Source: Escherichia phage 215Ecol030PP. Taken from it: a stretch of 64,000 nt of DNA. The notes beneath the pieces are model-generated. The model saw only the letters and a program-made list of their open reading frames with translations, searched no databases and was not told the origin of the DNA. The stretch lies in sequence record PP328843.1, one strand, 5' to 3'. Below, piece after piece: positions 21,597-40,674 of this stretch; the stretch's first letter is position 1, and each line of letters opens with the position of its first letter. The position numbers and the translations under genes were made by a program.

Positions 21597-22565
21597 TTAT
21601 TTCAGAAGAGTAACCTCAGCAATTTCTTCCCAACCGTTTTTGTCGGTCATAATAAAGTCAGCAAGATAAAGTGCAGTACGCAGTGAAACATTGCGTAAAC
21701 GGTTAACATTGACTTTCATCCATGATAATGCTTTATAAGTTTCTTCATCAGAAAGACCGCGCTTTTGCATCATGTCGGTTGAAAGAATAACATCTTCAAC
21801 CCTGACCATAATTTCTTCATTAGTGTGAACACCCAAATCTAAATAAACTGAGCGGGACACTAATGCTTGTAAATGTGGAGCGAGTTTAGTACCACGGTCT
21901 AATTCGCGGTCAATATCAACGTTTGTGATAAAAACAATCGTTCCTTTAAATTCAAACTCACGCTCAATGCCTTTTTCTTCTAAGTAAGAAGATGCAGTGC
22001 TCCAGCAGACTTTACGGGTCTCTCCAGTGTCCAGAGCAGCTTTCAGAAGATTAAGAATGTCCATATCAGAGAAAACATCCACATCATCAATCAAAAGGAC
22101 AGAATTCTCTTCACGATTATTCCAAAGCTGCTCATAAAGACCGATACCGGAGATTTTACCATTAATGCTTTTATACTCAATGTATCCAATATCATTTGCT
22201 TTATTCAAAGCTTTATCTAAAGAATACGTTTTACCAATACCTGCCGCACCAGAGATAATTAATGAACGAATGTTTCCGTTAATAATACCATTCGTCATCA
22301 TTCCCATAACATTAAATCTTTTATTAATGCGGGTTTTCATATCTTCATATGATTCTTTAACTTCTTCAACTTTTACACCATCATATGAAATGTCTGATTT
22401 GTAAACCCAAACACCGCGACGCTTACCGTCAATTTCAACAAAAACTTTACCATCTCCTTGTGCATCTACCGGAGCATTATCTGGGAACCATTCACCTAAG
22501 AGCTCAAAAGTTCCAGAGATTTCTTTACCGAAGTAGATACCCTTATTGATAGTTACAGTTTTCAT
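21597..22565 (-). CDS. P-loop NTPase (about 322 aa)
   Basis: Walker A GAAGIGKT and Walker B LLIDDVD. Confidence 0.6.
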   Translation of the reverse strand: MKTVTINKGIYFGKEISGTFELLGEWFPDNAPVDAQGDGKVFVEIDGKRRGVWVYKSDISYDGVKVEEVKESYEDMKTRINKRFNVMGMMTNGIINGNIRSLIISGAAGIGKTYSLDKALNKANDIGYIEYKSINGKISGIGLYEQLWNNREENSVLLIDDVDVFSDMDILNLLKAALDTGETRKVCWSTASSYLEEKGIEREFEFKGTIVFITNVDIDRELDRGTKLAPHLQALVSRSVYLDLGVHTNEEIMVRVEDVILSTDMMQKRGLSDEETYKALSWMKVNVNRLRNVSLRTALYLADFIMTDKNGWEEIAEVTLLK

Positions 22566-22601
22566 TTTATTCTCCAATTTCACATTTGTTTTGATAGGGT
22601 A

Positions 22602-22634: not shown

Positions 22635-22898
22635 TTATTTTAACGTTCGCCAAATTTTTACTGCTTCACGGCGAGATACTTCTACAGCTCCAAGTTCTAC
22701 AGCTTTTTGGCGTCGGCGAGCGTGTAAGTCATAATGTTTAATGCGTTTATCTTGAAACCAAGAACGTTTCATTCCTATTGCTTCTGCCATTTCATGAAGC
22801 TCTTCAATATCTCCATCAGTGAACATATGACAATTTTTAGTTGGATGACCGCGAAGTTTCCATCCATGATTCATTAAAACATCTACGTAAACTGTCAT
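22635..22898 (-). CDS. hypothetical protein (87 aa)
   Basis: ORF. Confidence 0.5.
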   Translation of the reverse strand: MTVYVDVLMNHGWKLRGHPTKNCHMFTDGDIEELHEMAEAIGMKRSWFQDKRIKHYDLHARRRQKAVELGAVEVSRREAVKIWRTLK

Positions 22899-23081
22899 TG
22901 ATTCTTCTCCAAATAAGTTTCGATAATTTTCTGGGCGAGATAAACCGCGTTATCTTCAGTTGCGTCTTCTAAGAAACTTTCAAAACACTCTGAAATTTCT
23001 TCTGTGTCAATCAACTTTTTTACTTCAATTGGTGTAATTTTCATTTTGTTTTTCCGTTTAAGTGTTTGTTTTGATAGTTGT

Positions 23082-23111
23082 ATAGTACCATAAAGCTTTA
23101 TGCTTGTAAAC
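23082..23111 (-). promoter_or_regulatory. T4-type early promoter
   Basis: Minus strand GTTTAC, 18-nt spacer, TACTAT. Confidence 0.5.
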
Positions 23112-23168
23112 TGTTTTGTGAAAAATTTTTGAAATAAAAAAAGGGACCTCTAAGGCCCCTTTATGCTT

Positions 23169-23654
23169 TTATTCCATTTCTATTATATGCATGTTCTTTT
23201 TGCTATCAAAATATATGTTTTTAACTGTTAACTCCGAATTAATTGGCAATAAAAACTCTCTTTCATAATCTACCATACAAAGGTTATCATAAAGCTTGTT
23301 AAGCTTATCATCGTCAGTTTGGCCAGATTCTTCAACTGCGATTAAATTTTCTAAAATGTCAATCATAGCAGTCGAATAGTCAAAAACGTTTGCATTTTTT
23401 AACACTACTAAAACATTAGTCATATAGCGTTCTGCAGCAAACGTTTCAGCTATATGAGACTCACTGCTAAAGGAAGTTATTCTTTTAAATTTGATTCTCC
23501 TATTAACTTCAAACTTATAAGATAGTACTTCCTCTATTGTAAGTCCTCTAAAAAGCACGTCTTTAATCTCAAGTTTGTCTTTAATGTAATCATTAACACG
23601 CTTATGATTAAAATCATTAATTTTGTTGCCAAGGCATTGCATTAAAATATGCAT
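23169..23654 (-). CDS. hypothetical protein with ADP-ribosyltransferase-like R-S-E motif pattern (161 aa)
   Basis: Ordered motifs VLFRG (Arg), SFSSES (Ser-rich strand), DYEREF (ExE) with spacing seen in R-S-E ADP-ribosyltransferases; motif-level only. Confidence 0.35.
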   Translation of the reverse strand: MHILMQCLGNKINDFNHKRVNDYIKDKLEIKDVLFRGLTIEEVLSYKFEVNRRIKFKRITSFSSESHIAETFAAERYMTNVLVVLKNANVFDYSTAMIDILENLIAVEESGQTDDDKLNKLYDNLCMVDYEREFLLPINSELTVKNIYFDSKKNMHIIEME

Positions 23655-23700
23655 TGTATTCTCCTCAATTTTTAAAGAGCAATTAATTAACTACACGTAT

Positions 23701-23730
23701 ATTATAATATGCTTTGCGGCAGAAGTAAAC
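23701..23730 (-). promoter_or_regulatory. T4-type early promoter
   Basis: Minus strand GTTTAC, 18-nt spacer, TATAAT. Confidence 0.5.
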
Positions 23731-23759
23731 AACTTTGTGACGTCATTTTAAACAAAAAA

Positions 23760-23775
23760 GGAGCCCGAAGGCTCC
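23760..23775 (-). promoter_or_regulatory. C(UUCG)G hairpin
   Basis: GGAGCCcgaaGGCTCC palindrome. Confidence 0.55.
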
Positions 23776-23778
23776 CTA

Positions 23779-24792
23779 TCATTTATAATAACTTCGGTGG
23801 TTTTCAAGATAGACCTTCTCAAGGAAGTCATCCCAGAAACTCATGTCTACTGTTTTAGGCATACCGTTCTTAGAAGCTTCAGTAGATGCTGCTTCTACTT
23901 GATCGACCACATCTTCCAAAAACTCTTGAACTGTTTTAAATGGATGTTTACCCAACTTCACGTCGAGAATAAATGGAGCATCTTGAAGTGGATAGACTAA
24001 GTCACCAGTTTTGTAAATTTCCAATAGTTGGAGTCCACCACGGCAAGCATGACTCAGAGCTTTCCAGTCAATGCCTTCATTGGCTTCGGCCTTACGAGCA
24101 CGTTCACCGTATTCAGCATCTAATTTGTTCAGTGACTGCTTAAGCTCAATAAGAGAAAGCGTTGTCTGATATTTACGACCCAACACAGTGTAGAACATTT
24201 GTGGGCCTGTTTTCTCATGATTATGGAACACCCATTCACAGAATTCGTTTTCTGGAAGACGATGCTTAATATCTTCAACTTTAGTACGACGCTGCTTAAT
24301 GGAACCGTCTTCTTGGTAATCAACCCATTGCTCAGGGATTTGATTAACTACTTTCAATACATCGCGTAATGCAGCCAAACGAGAACCCTTGACACCGTAT
24401 TTAGAAGCTTGCTTGCGAACATATCCTAAATAGGATTTCATGTTAGTCGTATAAAAACGAGAACGGTTGTCTTGAATAAACTTCCACACATCAGGCAAAT
24501 CAGATTTAACCACTAGTTCAGGTGGAGTGTGAAGCATATCCAACGCTACAGTTTCACCATCTGCTGCTAATTTAAAGAAATATTTAAGACTGTATAGTTC
24601 ATGGTCAATATCATCTTTAGTGTTTTTAGATGATGTGTTGTTAGTGTTTTTACTCATGTGCTCTTTGACATTTCCGATAAGAATATCGCGAGCAGGAGGA
24701 ACAAAGATTTCTTTAAAATCTACATCAGATTCTGGGGTAGAAGTTCCATAAAGATGGCTACCAAAATAACTTTTCATTACTGTTTTCATCAT
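23779..24792 (-). CDS. putative Pol-beta-superfamily nucleotidyltransferase (337 aa)
   Basis: N-terminal FGSHLYGTSTPESDVDF fits the NTase signature GS...G...SD[VI]D; a third acidic residue in TVALDMLH follows about 60 aa later. Confidence 0.5.
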   Translation of the reverse strand: MMKTVMKSYFGSHLYGTSTPESDVDFKEIFVPPARDILIGNVKEHMSKNTNNTSSKNTKDDIDHELYSLKYFFKLAADGETVALDMLHTPPELVVKSDLPDVWKFIQDNRSRFYTTNMKSYLGYVRKQASKYGVKGSRLAALRDVLKVVNQIPEQWVDYQEDGSIKQRRTKVEDIKHRLPENEFCEWVFHNHEKTGPQMFYTVLGRKYQTTLSLIELKQSLNKLDAEYGERARKAEANEGIDWKALSHACRGGLQLLEIYKTGDLVYPLQDAPFILDVKLGKHPFKTVQEFLEDVVDQVEAASTEASKNGMPKTVDMSFWDDFLEKVYLENHRSYYK

Positions 24793-25250
24793 TCAGCCTT
24801 ATATTCAATAACAGGACATACTTTAGCTTTACGAGCTTTTAAAAATTCAACGATAATCGATTTCTTGGGTTGAATAGGAGGTAAACCTTTATACGCTCTA
24901 TCAATATTTTCTACGTGTAAAGCATAATCCTTCTTCCATTTATAATCTTTATATTTTTCACGCAAATGTGCAGGAATAACAAATGAACCGATAATAAGTA
25001 AAACAACCAAAAGCGCAAGTATAAATGCTGATGGAAGCAAAGTCCATAAACTACCGAAAATAAGCCAACGTTGTAGACTTTCTGCACAAATAATTGTTAG
25101 CCCTACGAGTATAGTACATCCGAAAAAAGAAACGAAAAATGTAGGAATGGCAATAGACCAAAAGTATGCGCACAGCGTCTTAGGTCGTTGCCATTCATCG
25201 TTAAACAATTTGAATAATTTATAGTGCCAAGAGTTTTCATTAATAATCAT
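24789..25250 (-). CDS. membrane protein (153 aa)
   Basis: Three predicted transmembrane helices; stop overlaps the nucleotidyltransferase-like gene start. Confidence 0.5.
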   Translation of the reverse strand: MIINENSWHYKLFKLFNDEWQRPKTLCAYFWSIAIPTFFVSFFGCTILVGLTIICAESLQRWLIFGSLWTLLPSAFILALLVVLLIIGSFVIPAHLREKYKDYKWKKDYALHVENIDRAYKGLPPIQPKKSIIVEFLKARKAKVCPVIEYKAE

Positions 25251-25252
25251 AA

Positions 25253-25774
25253 TTATCCTTTCATTGAAGGTGTAACAGTTGTTAAATACTTAATCATAGC
25301 TTCAGCTTCTGATTTTGATAATGAAATTTCTTCATTGTTTTGACGAATAGAAATAAAATCCGGATGACGGTCACCACCAGCTTTTAAAACACACATATAA
25401 GTATCAGTTTCATCTTCAATATCTGAAATGATTGAAGCAGTTCCACATGAATGTGGTTTTTGATAAATCAATACAGCTTTTCTTCCACCGTTTGACTGTT
25501 CATAAACTTTTAACACATCAAACAAATCGCTTCTTTTATCAATAGCTAAGATGTTGTTTTCATCTTCAATATTAAATCCTTCGGATACTTCATAAAGTGT
25601 CACCCATAAATCACCAATATCAATAACAGCGTTCACTTTTCCATGACTTTCAAGAGTATGACAAATTTTCTTGATTTCGTCATAACTCATTTTAATAATA
25701 TCATCTCCTTGAATAAGGAAGATGTCATTTTTAAATTCAACACGAATTAAACCACTTCCACTTGAAATAAACAT
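25253..25774 (-). CDS. hypothetical protein (173 aa), paralogue of next ORF
   Basis: C-terminal ...EAEAMIKYLTTVTPSMKG resembles ...DEAIALKTYLDSVIPTMISK of the adjacent ORF. Confidence 0.5.
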   Translation of the reverse strand: MFISSGSGLIRVEFKNDIFLIQGDDIIKMSYDEIKKICHTLESHGKVNAVIDIGDLWVTLYEVSEGFNIEDENNILAIDKRSDLFDVLKVYEQSNGGRKAVLIYQKPHSCGTASIISDIEDETDTYMCVLKAGGDRHPDFISIRQNNEEISLSKSEAEAMIKYLTTVTPSMKG

Positions 25775-25780
25775 ATTTCC

Positions 25781-26338
25781 TCACTTTGAAATCATAGTTG
25801 GAATGACAGAATCGAGATAAGTCTTTAGCGCAATAGCTTCGTCTTTGGTAAATGTGACAATATACGATCGAAAATCATCAATTTGACGAATAGTTAAGAC
25901 ATCACCATCTTCATAGCATTTTGATACGTTTAAAACAGTTTCATCATTCTGATTGCAAGCGTTAGTAATAATAGCATTGCAATTTTTGAGCCATTTTAAA
26001 CTATGTTTTCTTTCATTAGAATAATAAAAATATTTAATCTTATCTATAAAACTATCCCAATGGATAACTGATAAACACATTGACTCACTTTTAATATTAA
26101 ATCCTGGGCATGAAGAATAAAAATGAATTTTGTGCTCATCATTGATGCTTACTATTTTATCAGTATAAGGATATTCAATTTGGGTTAAATGAATGATTTC
26201 ACTAGGCGTAAAATATAGCATATCGTCTTCTTGTGTCAAACGATACATATTATTTACTTTTTCTATAGCTAATTCACCAAAAAGCGGACTAACTTCTAAT
26301 ACTAATCGTTTCATATTGATTCTCTTCGACTCACCCAC
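25781..26338 (-). CDS. hypothetical protein (185 aa), paralogue of previous ORF
   Basis: See 25253..25774. Confidence 0.5.
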   Translation of the reverse strand: MGESKRINMKRLVLEVSPLFGELAIEKVNNMYRLTQEDDMLYFTPSEIIHLTQIEYPYTDKIVSINDEHKIHFYSSCPGFNIKSESMCLSVIHWDSFIDKIKYFYYSNERKHSLKWLKNCNAIITNACNQNDETVLNVSKCYEDGDVLTIRQIDDFRSYIVTFTKDEAIALKTYLDSVIPTMISK

Positions 26339-29467: not shown

Positions 29468-29655
29468 TATTCTTCTACATGTTGTTTACGACCTTTCTTA
29501 TCAATAAAGGTATATTCAACGAATGTTCCAATGTAGTCTTTATCTACATCATGTGGACTATTAATTGGACATTTAGTACGGCAAATGCGTTCCCATTGAC
29601 GAATAATTTCCACTTTGTTTTTAGGATCAAACGGATGTGGGTAATGTACTTTCAT
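29443..29655 (-). CDS. hypothetical small protein (70 aa)
   Basis: ORF. Confidence 0.45.
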   Translation of the reverse strand: MKVHYPHPFDPKNKVEIIRQWERICRTKCPINSPHDVDKDYIGTFVEYTFIDKKGRKQHVEEYCLKVTWL

Positions 29656-30106
29656 AATCCACCACTATTAAATCAATATCAGGAGTAAACATGTCGATTA
29701 ATTTAGAAACCTTATCCCAATCGCCGCCAGCAATACCACAACCTATGCGTGGAATGTAAATTACTGGTTTAAACAAAAGGGTTTCTGCCTGTAGATTTAA
29801 TTCTATCATGCAGTTTACTAAAGCACCATAATCAAGATTAGGACCTGGTTCGTATTGCGTATACAGGTTATAGCATATACCAAAACCATTAGGTTTATGT
29901 TTAAAAACAATAGACATATCGCCTAATTTATCACGAGAACCGTACTCAGTAGTGGTTTTATCTATTTCTAAAATTTTGGGATAGGCTCTTGCTAATTGAC
30001 CAGCTACACCTGAACCCATAGTATGAAAACAATTGCACCCGTGCGCAATAATATTACCTTGAAGAAATAGGGCGACAATATCGCCCTTGATATATTTTAC
30101 AATCAT
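29627..30106 (-). CDS. macrodomain protein (ADP-ribose binding/processing)
   Basis: 159-aa ORF with macro signatures NIIAHGCNCFHTMGSGVAGQL and glycine-rich GCGIAGG loop. Confidence 0.6.
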   Translation of the reverse strand: MIVKYIKGDIVALFLQGNIIAHGCNCFHTMGSGVAGQLARAYPKILEIDKTTTEYGSRDKLGDMSIVFKHKPNGFGICYNLYTQYEPGPNLDYGALVNCMIELNLQAETLLFKPVIYIPRIGCGIAGGDWDKVSKLIDMFTPDIDLIVVDYESTLPTSV

Positions 30107-39196: not shown

Positions 39197-39272
39197 TGGT
39201 CGAGGCAGTAGGGATCGAACCTACGACCCAGGACTTAGAAGGTCCTTGCTCTTCCTTCTGAGCTATGCCCCG
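39197..39272 (-). tRNA. tRNA-Arg (anticodon UCU)
   Basis: Hand-folded cloverleaf: acceptor CGGGGCA/TGCCTCG, anticodon loop CTTCTAA, T-loop TTCGATC, CCA encoded. Confidence 0.8.
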
Positions 39273-39276
39273 TAAT

Positions 39277-39352
39277 TGGGGTGACCGATGGGAGTCGAAC
39301 CCATGACTACGAGAATCACAATCTCGAGTTCTACCAACTGAACTACGGCCAC
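39277..39352 (-). tRNA. tRNA-His (anticodon GUG), no encoded G-1
   Basis: Acceptor GTGGCCG/CGGTCAC, anticodon loop TTGTGAT, discriminator C73, CCA encoded; base at -1 is U. Confidence 0.75.
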
Positions 39353-39466
39353 ATTAATACCTACTCCAACAATCAAGATGTCTTCACACGAAATTAAGAG
39401 AAGAGTGATCAGTTCAACCCCTATAATCGCGTCAAGTAGATATTAATGTGACAGTTGTCACAAATT

Positions 39467-39541
39467 TGGCGGACGTGATAGGATTCGAACCTATAACCAA
39501 TCGCTTAACAGGCGATCGCTCTGCCATTGAGCTACACATCC
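39467..39541 (-). tRNA. tRNA-Asn (anticodon GUU)
   Basis: Acceptor GGATGTG/CACGTCC, D-arm GCTC..GAGC, anticodon loop CTGTTAA, T-loop TTCGAAT, CCA encoded. Confidence 0.8.
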
Positions 39542-39545
39542 AAAT

Positions 39546-39632
39546 TGGTGGGGAGTGATGGAGTCGAACCACCCGAGTCGCAATGACAATGGATTTACAG
39601 TCCACACCGCTACCTCTACGGGATAACTCCCC
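39546..39632 (-). tRNA. tRNA-Tyr (anticodon GUA), long variable arm
   Basis: Acceptor GGGGAGT/ACTCCCC, anticodon loop CTGTAAA, about 14-nt variable arm, T-loop TTCGACT, CCA encoded. Confidence 0.75.
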
Positions 39633-39645
39633 TTAATTCTTAATT

Positions 39646-39720
39646 TGGTGGCCCTGGGTGGAATTGAACCACCATCTGGCGATTATGAGTCGCTTGCTTG
39701 AACCTTCCAGCTACAGGGCC
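39646..39720 (-). tRNA. tRNA with anticodon CAU (probably Ile, lysidine-type, as in T4; Met by naive reading)
   Basis: Acceptor GGCCCTG/CAGGGCC, anticodon loop CTCATAA, T-loop TTCAATT, CCA encoded. Confidence 0.7.
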
Positions 39721-39728
39721 AAATTTTC

Positions 39729-40214
39729 TTATTTTATGTAATATTTATTTAAAAACTTTCTAGCTTGAGTATGGCTAACATTTATAGCGTTTGCATAATT
39801 TTTAATAAAACCTCGTTCATCCATATTAAAATTTTCTAATATTTTTAATCGTCTAGTTATCTCATCTTGACTTAAGGTACTTGCATTATTTTTAGAAATT
39901 TTTTCTAAGGACTGTGCCGAGTGTTTTCGACCATTAAAATTAAAATTTTTAGATTTTGGAGGAAATCTAGCATTTAATCTCGCATCTTTTGTATTTTGAT
40001 TATTAGTTGCGCAATATATGTTATTTAATGAATATGGTCCTTTATCGCCGAAACGGCACATGCAGTATTCATGACCCTTTCTTCCACGCTTATCATAATT
40101 TCCCGTTGATTTCCACCAATGCAGCCATTCATCAAAAGTTAAATTCCATTCAATGTTTCTACGTATAGCAGAATTCCGCTGAGAAATATATTTTGCATAA
40201 TCTTCTTTCATCAC
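39729..40214 (-). CDS. hypothetical basic protein inside the tRNA cluster (segB position), possible DNA-binding/nuclease-like; family unresolved
   Basis: 161-aa ORF; no GIY-YIG or HNH motif recognised; Cys/His cluster GHEYCMCRFGDKGPYSLNNIYC and C-terminal helix-turn-helix-like tail. Confidence 0.45.
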   Translation of the reverse strand: MMKEDYAKYISQRNSAIRRNIEWNLTFDEWLHWWKSTGNYDKRGRKGHEYCMCRFGDKGPYSLNNIYCATNNQNTKDARLNARFPPKSKNFNFNGRKHSAQSLEKISKNNASTLSQDEITRRLKILENFNMDERGFIKNYANAINVSHTQARKFLNKYYIK

Positions 40215-40258
40215 AAATTTCTCTACTTATTCAATACACTGAGCTAAATCAGCAAAAC

Positions 40259-40348
40259 TGGCGGAGGCGATAGGATTTGAACCTATGAGTCGCCGGAGCG
40301 ACTGCCGGTTTTCAAGACCGGTGCATTAAACCACTCTGCCACGCCTCC
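40259..40348 (-). tRNA. tRNA-Ser (anticodon UGA), long variable arm
   Basis: Acceptor GGAGGCG/CGCCTCC, anticodon loop CTTGAAA, long variable arm, CCA encoded. Confidence 0.8.
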
Positions 40349-40350
40349 AG

Positions 40351-40424
40351 TCTCCGCGGCAGGATTTGAACCTACGACATTCTGCTCCCAAAGCAGACGC
40401 TCTACCAAACTGAGCTACACGGAG
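40351..40424 (-). tRNA. tRNA-Pro (anticodon UGG)
   Basis: Acceptor CTCCGTG/CGCGGAG, D-arm GCTC..GAGC, anticodon loop TTTGGGA, T-loop TTCAAAT. Confidence 0.8.
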
Positions 40425-40434
40425 TAAATTAAAT

Positions 40435-40508
<74 letters not shown>

Positions 40509-40513
40509 AAATT

Positions 40514-40600
40514 TGGTGCGAGAAGTGGGACTCGAACCCACAAGGAAATCATTCCGCAGCATTTTAAGTGCTGTGCCTTTACCAATTTGGCCATTCTCGC
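40514..40600 (-). tRNA. tRNA-Leu (anticodon UAA), long variable arm
   Basis: Acceptor GCGAGAA/TTCTCGC, anticodon loop CTTAAAA, long variable arm, T-loop TTCGAGT, CCA encoded. Confidence 0.8.
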
Positions 40601-40601
40601 G

Positions 40602-40674
40602 CTGGGAATAAAGGACTCGAACCTTTGCATCCTGGAATCAAAATCCAGTGCCTTACCAACTTGGCTAATTCCCA
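40602..40674 (-). tRNA. tRNA-Gln (anticodon UUG)
   Basis: Acceptor TGGGAAT/ATTCCCA, anticodon loop TTTTGAT, T-loop TTCGAGT. Confidence 0.8.

Follow-up and report, generated by a model that had tools for sequence, protein, structure and literature searches.

A divergent RlaP-family nucleotidyltransferase gene and a supernumerary Mod-type ADP-ribosyltransferase cassette as probable chance neighbours in a T2-like Tequatrovirus

Two adjacent early genes and the signals between them

Two neighbouring minus-strand genes were analysed in a 64,000-nucleotide stretch of Escherichia phage 215Ecol030PP (sequence record PP328843.1; hereafter the window): nrdC.11, a 337-aa open reading frame (ORF) at positions 23779..24792, and a 161-aa ORF at positions 23169..23654 that encodes an ADP-ribosyltransferase (ART)-like protein. 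An initial annotation had described these genes as nucleotidyltransferase (NTase)-like and ART-like, had recognised neither as a characterised T-even function, and had suggested that they might form a nucleotide-signalling or protein-modifying pair. Both ORFs were confirmed at these coordinates in an ORF check of the window, and the motifs quoted for them are present and fall in conserved columns of the homologue alignments. The region is 95–96% identical at the nucleotide level to T2-like Tequatroviruses, for example T2 itself and vB_EcoM_ACG-C40, and corresponds to the nrdC-to-tk early region, with its genes on the minus strand. In the direction of transcription, the gene order is two y05I-like genes, a 153-aa membrane-protein gene, nrdC.11, the 161-aa ORF, a 49-aa ORF, a DUF4031 gene, and nrdC.10. 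Both proteins do have T-even counterparts: the 337-aa protein is a direct orthologue of NrdC.11 from T2 (98% identical) and T4 (about 98% identical), and the 161-aa protein belongs to the ModA/ModB family, its orthologues in T2 and ACG-C40 being annotated in RefSeq as 'RNA polymerase ADP-ribosylase'. The locus is probably best described as two independent early genes, a divergent RlaP-family NTase and a supernumerary ModA/ModB-type ART cassette, that have become neighbours by chance in a hyperplastic part of a T2-like Tequatrovirus genome.

Between the two genes lie a terminator and a promoter. The nrdC.11 stop codon is directly followed by an intrinsic-terminator stem-loop at 23758..23777 (minus strand), which reads AGGGAGCCTTCGGGCTCCTT and precedes a T-run. 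Next, a T4-type early promoter of the form TTTACT-N17-TATAAT lies at 23701..23729 (minus strand; 10/12 matches in the promoter scan) and a Shine-Dalgarno sequence, GAGGAG, at 23661-23666 (minus strand) ahead of the ART ATG, in agreement with the early promoter of its own that had been assigned to this gene. Directly after the ART gene, a second intrinsic terminator is found at 23140..23162 (minus strand), where AAAGGGGCCTTAGAGGTCCCTTT precedes another T-run. The promoter scan places the next early-type promoter, TTTACA-N17-TACTAT, at 23082..23110 (minus strand), where it closes the cassette and drives the small ORFs that follow. On the upstream side, the stop codon of the membrane-protein gene (24789..25250, minus strand; phrog_944 'membrane protein', E=1e-49) and the start codon of nrdC.11 overlap as ATGA within the sequence gctgaATGAtgaaa, which bears out the upstream coupling noted earlier. 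The membrane-protein gene shares its transcription unit with nrdC.11 and not with the ART gene, and nrdC.11 would be transcribed with it and translationally coupled to it.

NrdC.11 as a divergent member of the RlaP family

The NrdC.11 protein, whose N-terminus reads MMKTVMKSYFGSHLYGTSTPESDVDF, scores 43.9 bits against the Pfam RlaP family PF10127 over residues 7-135 (E=3.1e-11), where a family score above the Pfam gathering score of 23 bits was taken as the criterion of membership. All NrdC.11 homologues carry a precomputed PF10127 label, and the protein matches phrog_388 'nucleotidyltransferase' over its full length. The Pol-beta signature read from the ORF by the initial annotation holds in an alignment of 60 homologues with identities down to 34%, in which the GS and DVD residues belong to an invariant set (G11, S12, G16, S22, D23, D25, and D63) and D61 and D85 are almost invariant. 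The position given there for the third acidic residue, about 60 aa beyond the DVD motif, needs to be revised. D63 is the likeliest third catalytic carboxylate: it is invariant, lies on a β-strand of the structural model 38 residues past D25, and occupies the column of the third conserved Asp in canonical RlaP. D85, about 60 aa past the motif, instead matches the Glu in the 'EWL.SP' motif of RlaP. The predicted catalytic residues of this Pol-beta NTase are G11-S12, D23, D25, and D63.

The relationship to canonical RlaP is distant. A hidden Markov model (HMM) of the NrdC.11 clade picks up one of 13 canonical RlaP proteins encoded next to NrdC.11 relatives; the two clades are therefore far apart, and profile-profile comparison is needed to relate them. 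This comparison aligns residues 4-91 with a probability of 92.9% (E=3.7e-7) and brings the GS, DxD, third Asp, and [D/E]xLxxP motifs into register. Both types of protein thus share these motifs and an N-terminal NTase domain, but NrdC.11 is approximately 70 residues longer than canonical RlaP, contains a β-rich insert, and has a different helical C-terminus. Relatives of NrdC.11 are abundant: an exhaustive HMMER search found 3508 clusters at 50% identity, 832 of them with E<=1e-30, and most of the best 150 relatives listed are full length. On these sequence relationships, nrdC.11 is an ordinary, near-universal T4-family gene that can now be assigned to the RlaP RNA-repair NTases. The initial annotation had allowed for the two proteins being ordinary T4 nrdC.x/mobD.x-type products with unrelated folds; the 337-aa protein is indeed an ordinary NrdC.11, but its modelled fold is that of an NTase.

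A model of NrdC.11 built from 60 diverse sequences (pLDDT 91.7, pTM 0.74) shows an N-terminal α/β NTase domain (residues 1-96) followed by long helices and the β-rich insert (residues 155-209). The nearest solved structures are those of Hailong HalB and kanamycin nucleotidyltransferase-type enzymes, with which NrdC.11 shares 9-15% identity and no relationship by sequence profiles. The known substrates of these enzymes, dATP for polymerisation by HalB and aminoglycosides for kanamycin nucleotidyltransferase, differ from the one proposed below for NrdC.11. This resemblance raises the alternative that NrdC.11 is a signalling or signal-mimicking NTase, either CD-NTase/OAS-like or a HalB-like oligonucleotide maker, that for example subverts Hailong- or CBASS-type defence. 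Such a function is considered unlikely. The significant family match is to RlaP, and no match to a CD-NTase, OAS, or Mab21 family was obtained with Pfam (E<=0.1), NCBIfam (E<=1), or PADLOC (E<=0.01). No cGAS, OAS, or CD-NTase structure occurs among the top structural matches of the model in either match list, and the identity to HalB is just 15%. Searches of PDB chain sequences with the NrdC.11 sequence, the 60-sequence NrdC.11 profile, or the 161-aa protein returned nothing useful, and PADLOC gave no defence-system match to either protein. The palm-domain assignment made previously is right for NrdC.11, as the family match and the model both indicate; its CD-NTase/OAS flavour is not supported, because no structure or family of that kind was found.

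The RlaP family provides a different functional frame. Two Pseudomonas enzymes, PfRlaP from P. fluorescens and PaRlaP from P. aeruginosa, are the only members with a reported RlaP activity; they add one or two NMPs onto the 3'-OH of RNA, and not onto DNA or protein, with a preference for Mn2+ and damaged-tRNA mimics (PMC12776372, a December 2025 preprint). When RlaP acts before ligation, it can restore the aminoacylation of a tRNA that has lost one anticodon-loop nucleotide, and it has been proposed to be an antidote to nucleotide-excising ribotoxins such as RloC (PMC12776372). The crystal structure of PfRlaP contains an N-terminal NTase domain and, at the C-terminus, a helical domain in which the final helix packs back against the NTase domain (PMC12776372). 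In the same study, T4 NrdC.11 was assigned to PF10127 and to cluster 5 of a sequence similarity network, with function unknown (PMC12776372). A comparative study had predicted that phage RlaP enzymes restore nucleotides ahead of ligation (PMC7824862).

The genomic context of cellular relatives points in the same direction. A scan covered 80 bacterial and archaeal loci that encode full-length NrdC.11 relatives with 33-53% identity. At 12-13 of these, a canonical RlaP gene encoding 250-280 aa lies directly downstream on the same strand, often overlapping (L009, L019, L031, L038, L055, L058, L061, L065, L069, L074, L079, and L082), and in L061 and L082 a Pnkp gene is also found immediately upstream. 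A bacterial Pnkp gene lies near the NrdC.11 relative in 7 of the 80 loci. Hen1, RtcA, RtcB, a T4-Rnl1-type ligase, and Ro60 are also among the immediate neighbours, and approximately one quarter of the loci have RNA-repair genes within two genes of the NrdC.11 relative. Such surroundings support a role of the NrdC.11 clade in RNA repair. They also argue further against the signalling alternative, given that the cellular relatives occur in repair operons with Pnkp, Hen1, Rtc, and RlaP genes and not in effector-bearing defence operons. Because NrdC.11-type and canonical RlaP genes are often neighbours in bacteria, they are not redundant copies, which shows the NrdC.11 clade to be a separate partner of canonical RlaP and not its duplicate. 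The arrangement suggests a two-NTase RNA-repair operon in which the two enzymes have different, cooperating roles.

From these relationships, a role in the repair of tRNA can be proposed. The substrates of NrdC.11 would be tRNA halves that lack a nucleotide removed by an RloC-type host anticodon nuclease. Damage by this nuclease would be followed by end-healing by Pnkp, nucleotide restoration by NrdC.11, and sealing by Rnl, such that the phage 5'-phosphate RNA ligases and Pnkp could reseal a functional tRNA. This order is coherent, since RlaP requires and leaves a 3'-OH and is compatible with 5'-phosphate ligases, and in phages the classic repair system pairs T4 RNA ligase 1 with Pnkp (PMC12776372). 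Several observations weigh against the proposed role. Approximately three quarters of the 80 cellular loci have no obvious RNA-repair neighbour, the RNA-repair genes of the phage are not adjacent to nrdC.11, and the window has no ligase gene next to it. Moreover, the alignment with canonical RlaP is limited to the first ~90 residues of NrdC.11. The C-terminal two thirds of the protein, including the insert at residues 155-209, are specific to the clade, and the substrate could therefore differ from that of canonical RlaP. If NrdC.11 is an RlaP-type RNA 3'-end nucleotidyltransferase, the step that restores nucleotides, so far missing from the classic T4 Pnkp/Rnl1 pathway of tRNA repair against RloC-type anticodon nucleases, would be accounted for. 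With NrdC.11 encoded by about 1500 sequenced T4-like phages and often mislabelled, there is also value in a better annotation. In public records, its orthologues are widely labelled 'thioredoxin', many are labelled 'hypothetical', and one carries the label 'HNH homing endonuclease'. The name 'molybdopterin-guanine dinucleotide biosynthesis protein MobD' has similarly been given to small mobD.x ORFs, and both sets of propagated labels apparently arise from confusion over gene names.

A compact member of the Mod ADP-ribosyltransferase family

The 161-aa protein aligns over essentially its whole length with T4 ModA (28% identity, E=2e-10) and T4 ModB (30% identity, E=3e-15) in BLASTP comparisons, and matches phrog_832 'RNA polymerase ADP-ribosylase' with E=9e-24. 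In a large protein database, it shares the precomputed label PF26816 Mod_ADP_RT with ModA and ModB. The assignment to the ART family is based on BLASTP, PHROGs, and this precomputed label, because the models used in the Pfam and NCBIfam scans match neither the 161-aa protein nor T4 ModA or ModB. The motifs LFRG (R36), SFSSES (S61), and YEREF (E131/E133) fall in columns that are conserved with both T4 proteins, and the similarity reflects homology and not chance. Among 13 Mod family members, R36, G37, and S61 do not vary, and E131 and E133 are each kept in >=90%. The roles of these residues are taken from the alignment and from work on ModB R73A: R36-G37 aligns with ModB R73-G74, the residues that were mutated to inactivate ModB. 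ModA and ModB have been described as Arg-specific R-S-ExE enzymes. In the ARTC clade more generally, an ExE motif predicts arginine specificity.

Structure prediction is in agreement with this assignment, and the R-S-E ART call of the initial annotation, which had been made at the level of motifs, is upheld. The AF2 model (pLDDT 90.3, pTM 0.83) contains a complete ART core, and a Foldseek search of the PDB returned 82 matches with E<=1e-3, led by C3bot, Tre1, ExoS, Certhrax, and Vip2. The top neighbours are exclusively R-S-E ARTs (C3 exoenzymes, Tre1, ExoS/T, XopAI, Certhrax, Vip2, SpvB, and CDTa), with TM scores of about 0.45-0.6 and a Foldseek probability of 1.00. Toxins of the C3 exoenzyme, Tre1, and ExoS type thus share the fold of the model, and the ART domain of Tre1 is of similar size. 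With just 8-16% identity to the 161-aa protein, however, they are structural analogues within the clade and not close relatives.

In comparison with T4 ModA and ModB, the 161-aa protein is likewise the product of an early gene and has the R, G, S, and ExE residues of the catalytic core in matching columns. It is shorter than these proteins (161 versus 200-207 aa), and its gene lies in the gap between nrdC.10 and nrdC.11 instead of the modA-modB operon, which in T2, ACG-C40, and HY01 is about 40 kb away. It is also sporadic, horizontally mobile, and additional to modA and modB. ACG-C40 and HY01 carry intact modA and modB genes beside the extra ART gene, T2 carries modA and a split modB, and Moon carries one ModB-like gene. 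In the T2 reference sequence (NC_054931, 11151-11772; L088, 1652-2273), modB consists of two ORFs of 129 bp and 429 bp, compared with the 624-bp gene of T4, and appears to be disrupted. Compensation for a broken modB by the extra ART was considered and rejected, as ACG-C40 and HY01 keep both genes intact. The gene has been listed in a Tequatrovirus pangenome as a rare 'cloud gene' under the name 'ModB ADP-ribosylase' (PMC10236363). A literature search found no named third Mod enzyme and no functional study of the 161-aa ART.

Whether such a compact protein retains a function was considered next to its sequence conservation. The protein lacks approximately 40 N-terminal residues of ModA and ModB, beginning at about ModA residue 38, and its gene is sporadic, with orthologues in 43 phage records. 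Furthermore, dN/dS is about 1 or higher among the near-identical copies of T2, Moon, and ACG-C40 (L001, L002, and L004), in which very few substitutions have occurred and the nonsynonymous changes (7.5-10.5) exceed the synonymous changes (0.5-2.5). Truncated Mod genes also exist elsewhere, namely the split modB of T2 and a 157-aa ModA fragment (P0128). These features weigh against a functional enzyme and would fit a decaying or catalytically dead Mod remnant without a function of its own, an explanation to which we assign a low probability. All orthologues, as well as relatives with 53% and 62% identity, keep R36, G37, S61, E131, and E133, and across those relatives the length holds at 161-162 aa. 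The confident model of Tre1-like size has a complete core, and the promoter, strong Shine-Dalgarno sequence, and terminator of the gene are all conserved across genera. In the deeper comparisons of the window copy with the T2, Moon, and ACG-C40 copies, dN/dS is 0.13-0.21. The nonsynonymous excess among the near-identical copies could reflect relaxed or diversifying selection, the counts being too small to decide, and all catalytic residues are kept in every copy.

By homology and distribution, the 161-aa ART is a rare, mobile, and compact member of the ModA/ModB family, encoded by a third Mod paralogue gene. It would be arginine-specific, as predicted from the ExE motif, would use NAD+ or possibly NAD-capped RNA, and may act early in infection by modifying a host protein. 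It is possible, although doubtful at present, that the protein is a functionally distinct third Mod enzyme ('ModC'), that is, a minimal and horizontally mobile enzyme that ADP-ribosylates arginine or performs RNAylation and whose host target is unlike those of ModA and ModB. If so, this target could belong to host defence or to the stress response, and carrier phages could gain a host-range or counter-defence advantage. As a natural minimal version of ModA/ModB, the compact paralogue could help to define the determinants of target choice or of the ability to RNAylate, and the point of greatest interest is what it modifies.

Mobility of the cassette and its relation to nrdC.11

The ART gene resembles the mobile cassettes of T4-type phages that are bounded by promoter/stem-loop units called PeSLs, for promoter-early stem-loop (PMC2839356, PMC4122927), with a stem-loop terminator and an early promoter on both sides. 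The stem-loop at 23758..23777 is one half of the upstream PeSL, and that at 23140..23162 belongs to the downstream PeSL. The ART promoter fits the PST/T4 PeSL consensus TTTACW-N17-TAYWAT (PMC4122927) and is conserved in T2, ACG-C40, and Moon. In T2, the two units around the ART gene form a 54-nt direct repeat that is 72% identical and comprises the stem-loop and the −35 region. In the window, the upstream spacer has diverged, and the flanks no longer register as a repeat. As with other PeSL cassettes, the gene is present or absent in close relatives and is far more conserved than its flanks across genera. The stretch from 23105 to 23739, which includes the promoter, the terminator, and the next promoter, is 93% identical at the nucleotide level to Citrobacter phage Moon, a member of a different genus; in contrast, the flanking genes nrdC.11 and nrdC.10 are 67% and 76% identical, respectively. 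This difference is a clear signature of lateral transfer, as read from the nucleotide identities. The ART gene would thus be a monocistronic cassette that has an early promoter and a terminator to itself, lies between two PeSLs, and has moved horizontally between phage genera. PeSL cassettes are linked with a mini-circle mechanism, and the ART cassette is likened to them by its anatomy, distribution, and conservation. The locus is a PeSL-bounded insertion hot spot of a known type in the T4-type hyperplastic region, and the cassette neatly illustrates how PeSLs mediate gene flow from one phage genus to another.

These findings bear on the suggestion that the NTase and the ART act as one host-takeover or counter-defence module, for example as a second-messenger synthase or sponge together with a protein modifier. 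The genes are adjacent not only here but also in T2 and ACG-C40, and the same genome carries a gene for a macrodomain protein. Beyond these phages, an ART gene is again found downstream of an nrdC.11 homologue in two further lineages: in Moon and at the metagenomic locus L087, where a 53%-identical ART relative lies two small ORFs downstream of the RlaP gene, as in Moon. We nevertheless regard a module as very improbable. In tblastn searches, NrdC.11 is found in 1518 phage records across the Straboviridae and the ART orthologue (>=90% identity) in 43, and in T4 nrdC.10 and nrdC.11 are direct neighbours without an intervening ART gene. The two genes belong to separate transcription units, with a terminator and a promoter between them, and have differing histories, as seen in their nucleotide identities to Moon (93% for the cassette, 67% for nrdC.11). 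In addition, a 62%-identical ART relative sits elsewhere, between regA and the DNA polymerase gene (gene 43). The recurrent position beside nrdC.11 is best explained by an insertion hot spot of the known PeSL-bounded type. The recurrence in Moon and L087 leaves a small probability for a loose functional link between the two genes.

The two genes therefore look independent, and their pairing incidental, at odds with the signalling or protein-modifying pair proposed in the initial annotation. Both proteins are already annotated accordingly in public phage genomes, and the locus is no new signalling or counter-defence module. Neither the NrdC.11 nor the ART result overturns current understanding.

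The macrodomain protein, which had been noted previously, is encoded by an ORF at window positions 29627-30106 (minus strand) and was confirmed by a Pfam Macro match with E=6e-8. Its residues 4-152 also match the PADLOC DarG model (E=4e-7). DarG is a macrodomain antitoxin that reverses the DNA ADP-ribosylation catalysed by DarT, and the phage protein could be a counter-defence enzyme that removes ADP-ribose.

The remaining genes around the locus vary among relatives. Upstream, two tandem paralogues of y05I-like putative transcription factors (PF24449 and PF24448) occupy window positions 25253-26338 (minus strand), and this pair and the membrane-protein gene stand where mobD, which encodes a homing endonuclease, is found in T4. 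Between the ART cassette and nrdC.10, the 49-aa ORF (phrog_6888) and the DUF4031 gene (22635-23044, minus strand) lie behind their own promoter (23110-23082). ACG-C40 has both of these genes and T2 has neither, and in Moon the DUF4031 gene is found at a different position in the same region. The two genes look like another shuffled cassette. NrdC.10 (328 aa; 21597-22583, minus strand) has only sub-threshold matches to AAA/STAND-type NTPases, such as AAA_14 with E=6e-5, and contains a Walker-A-like motif, GAAGIGKT. Farther away, 10 tRNA genes (Arg, His, Asn, Tyr, Met, Ser, Pro, Gly, Leu, and Gln) are clustered at window positions 39197-40674 (minus strand). T4 has eight tRNA genes, a partly different set. 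The cluster in the window coincides with a local peak in G+C content (0.40).

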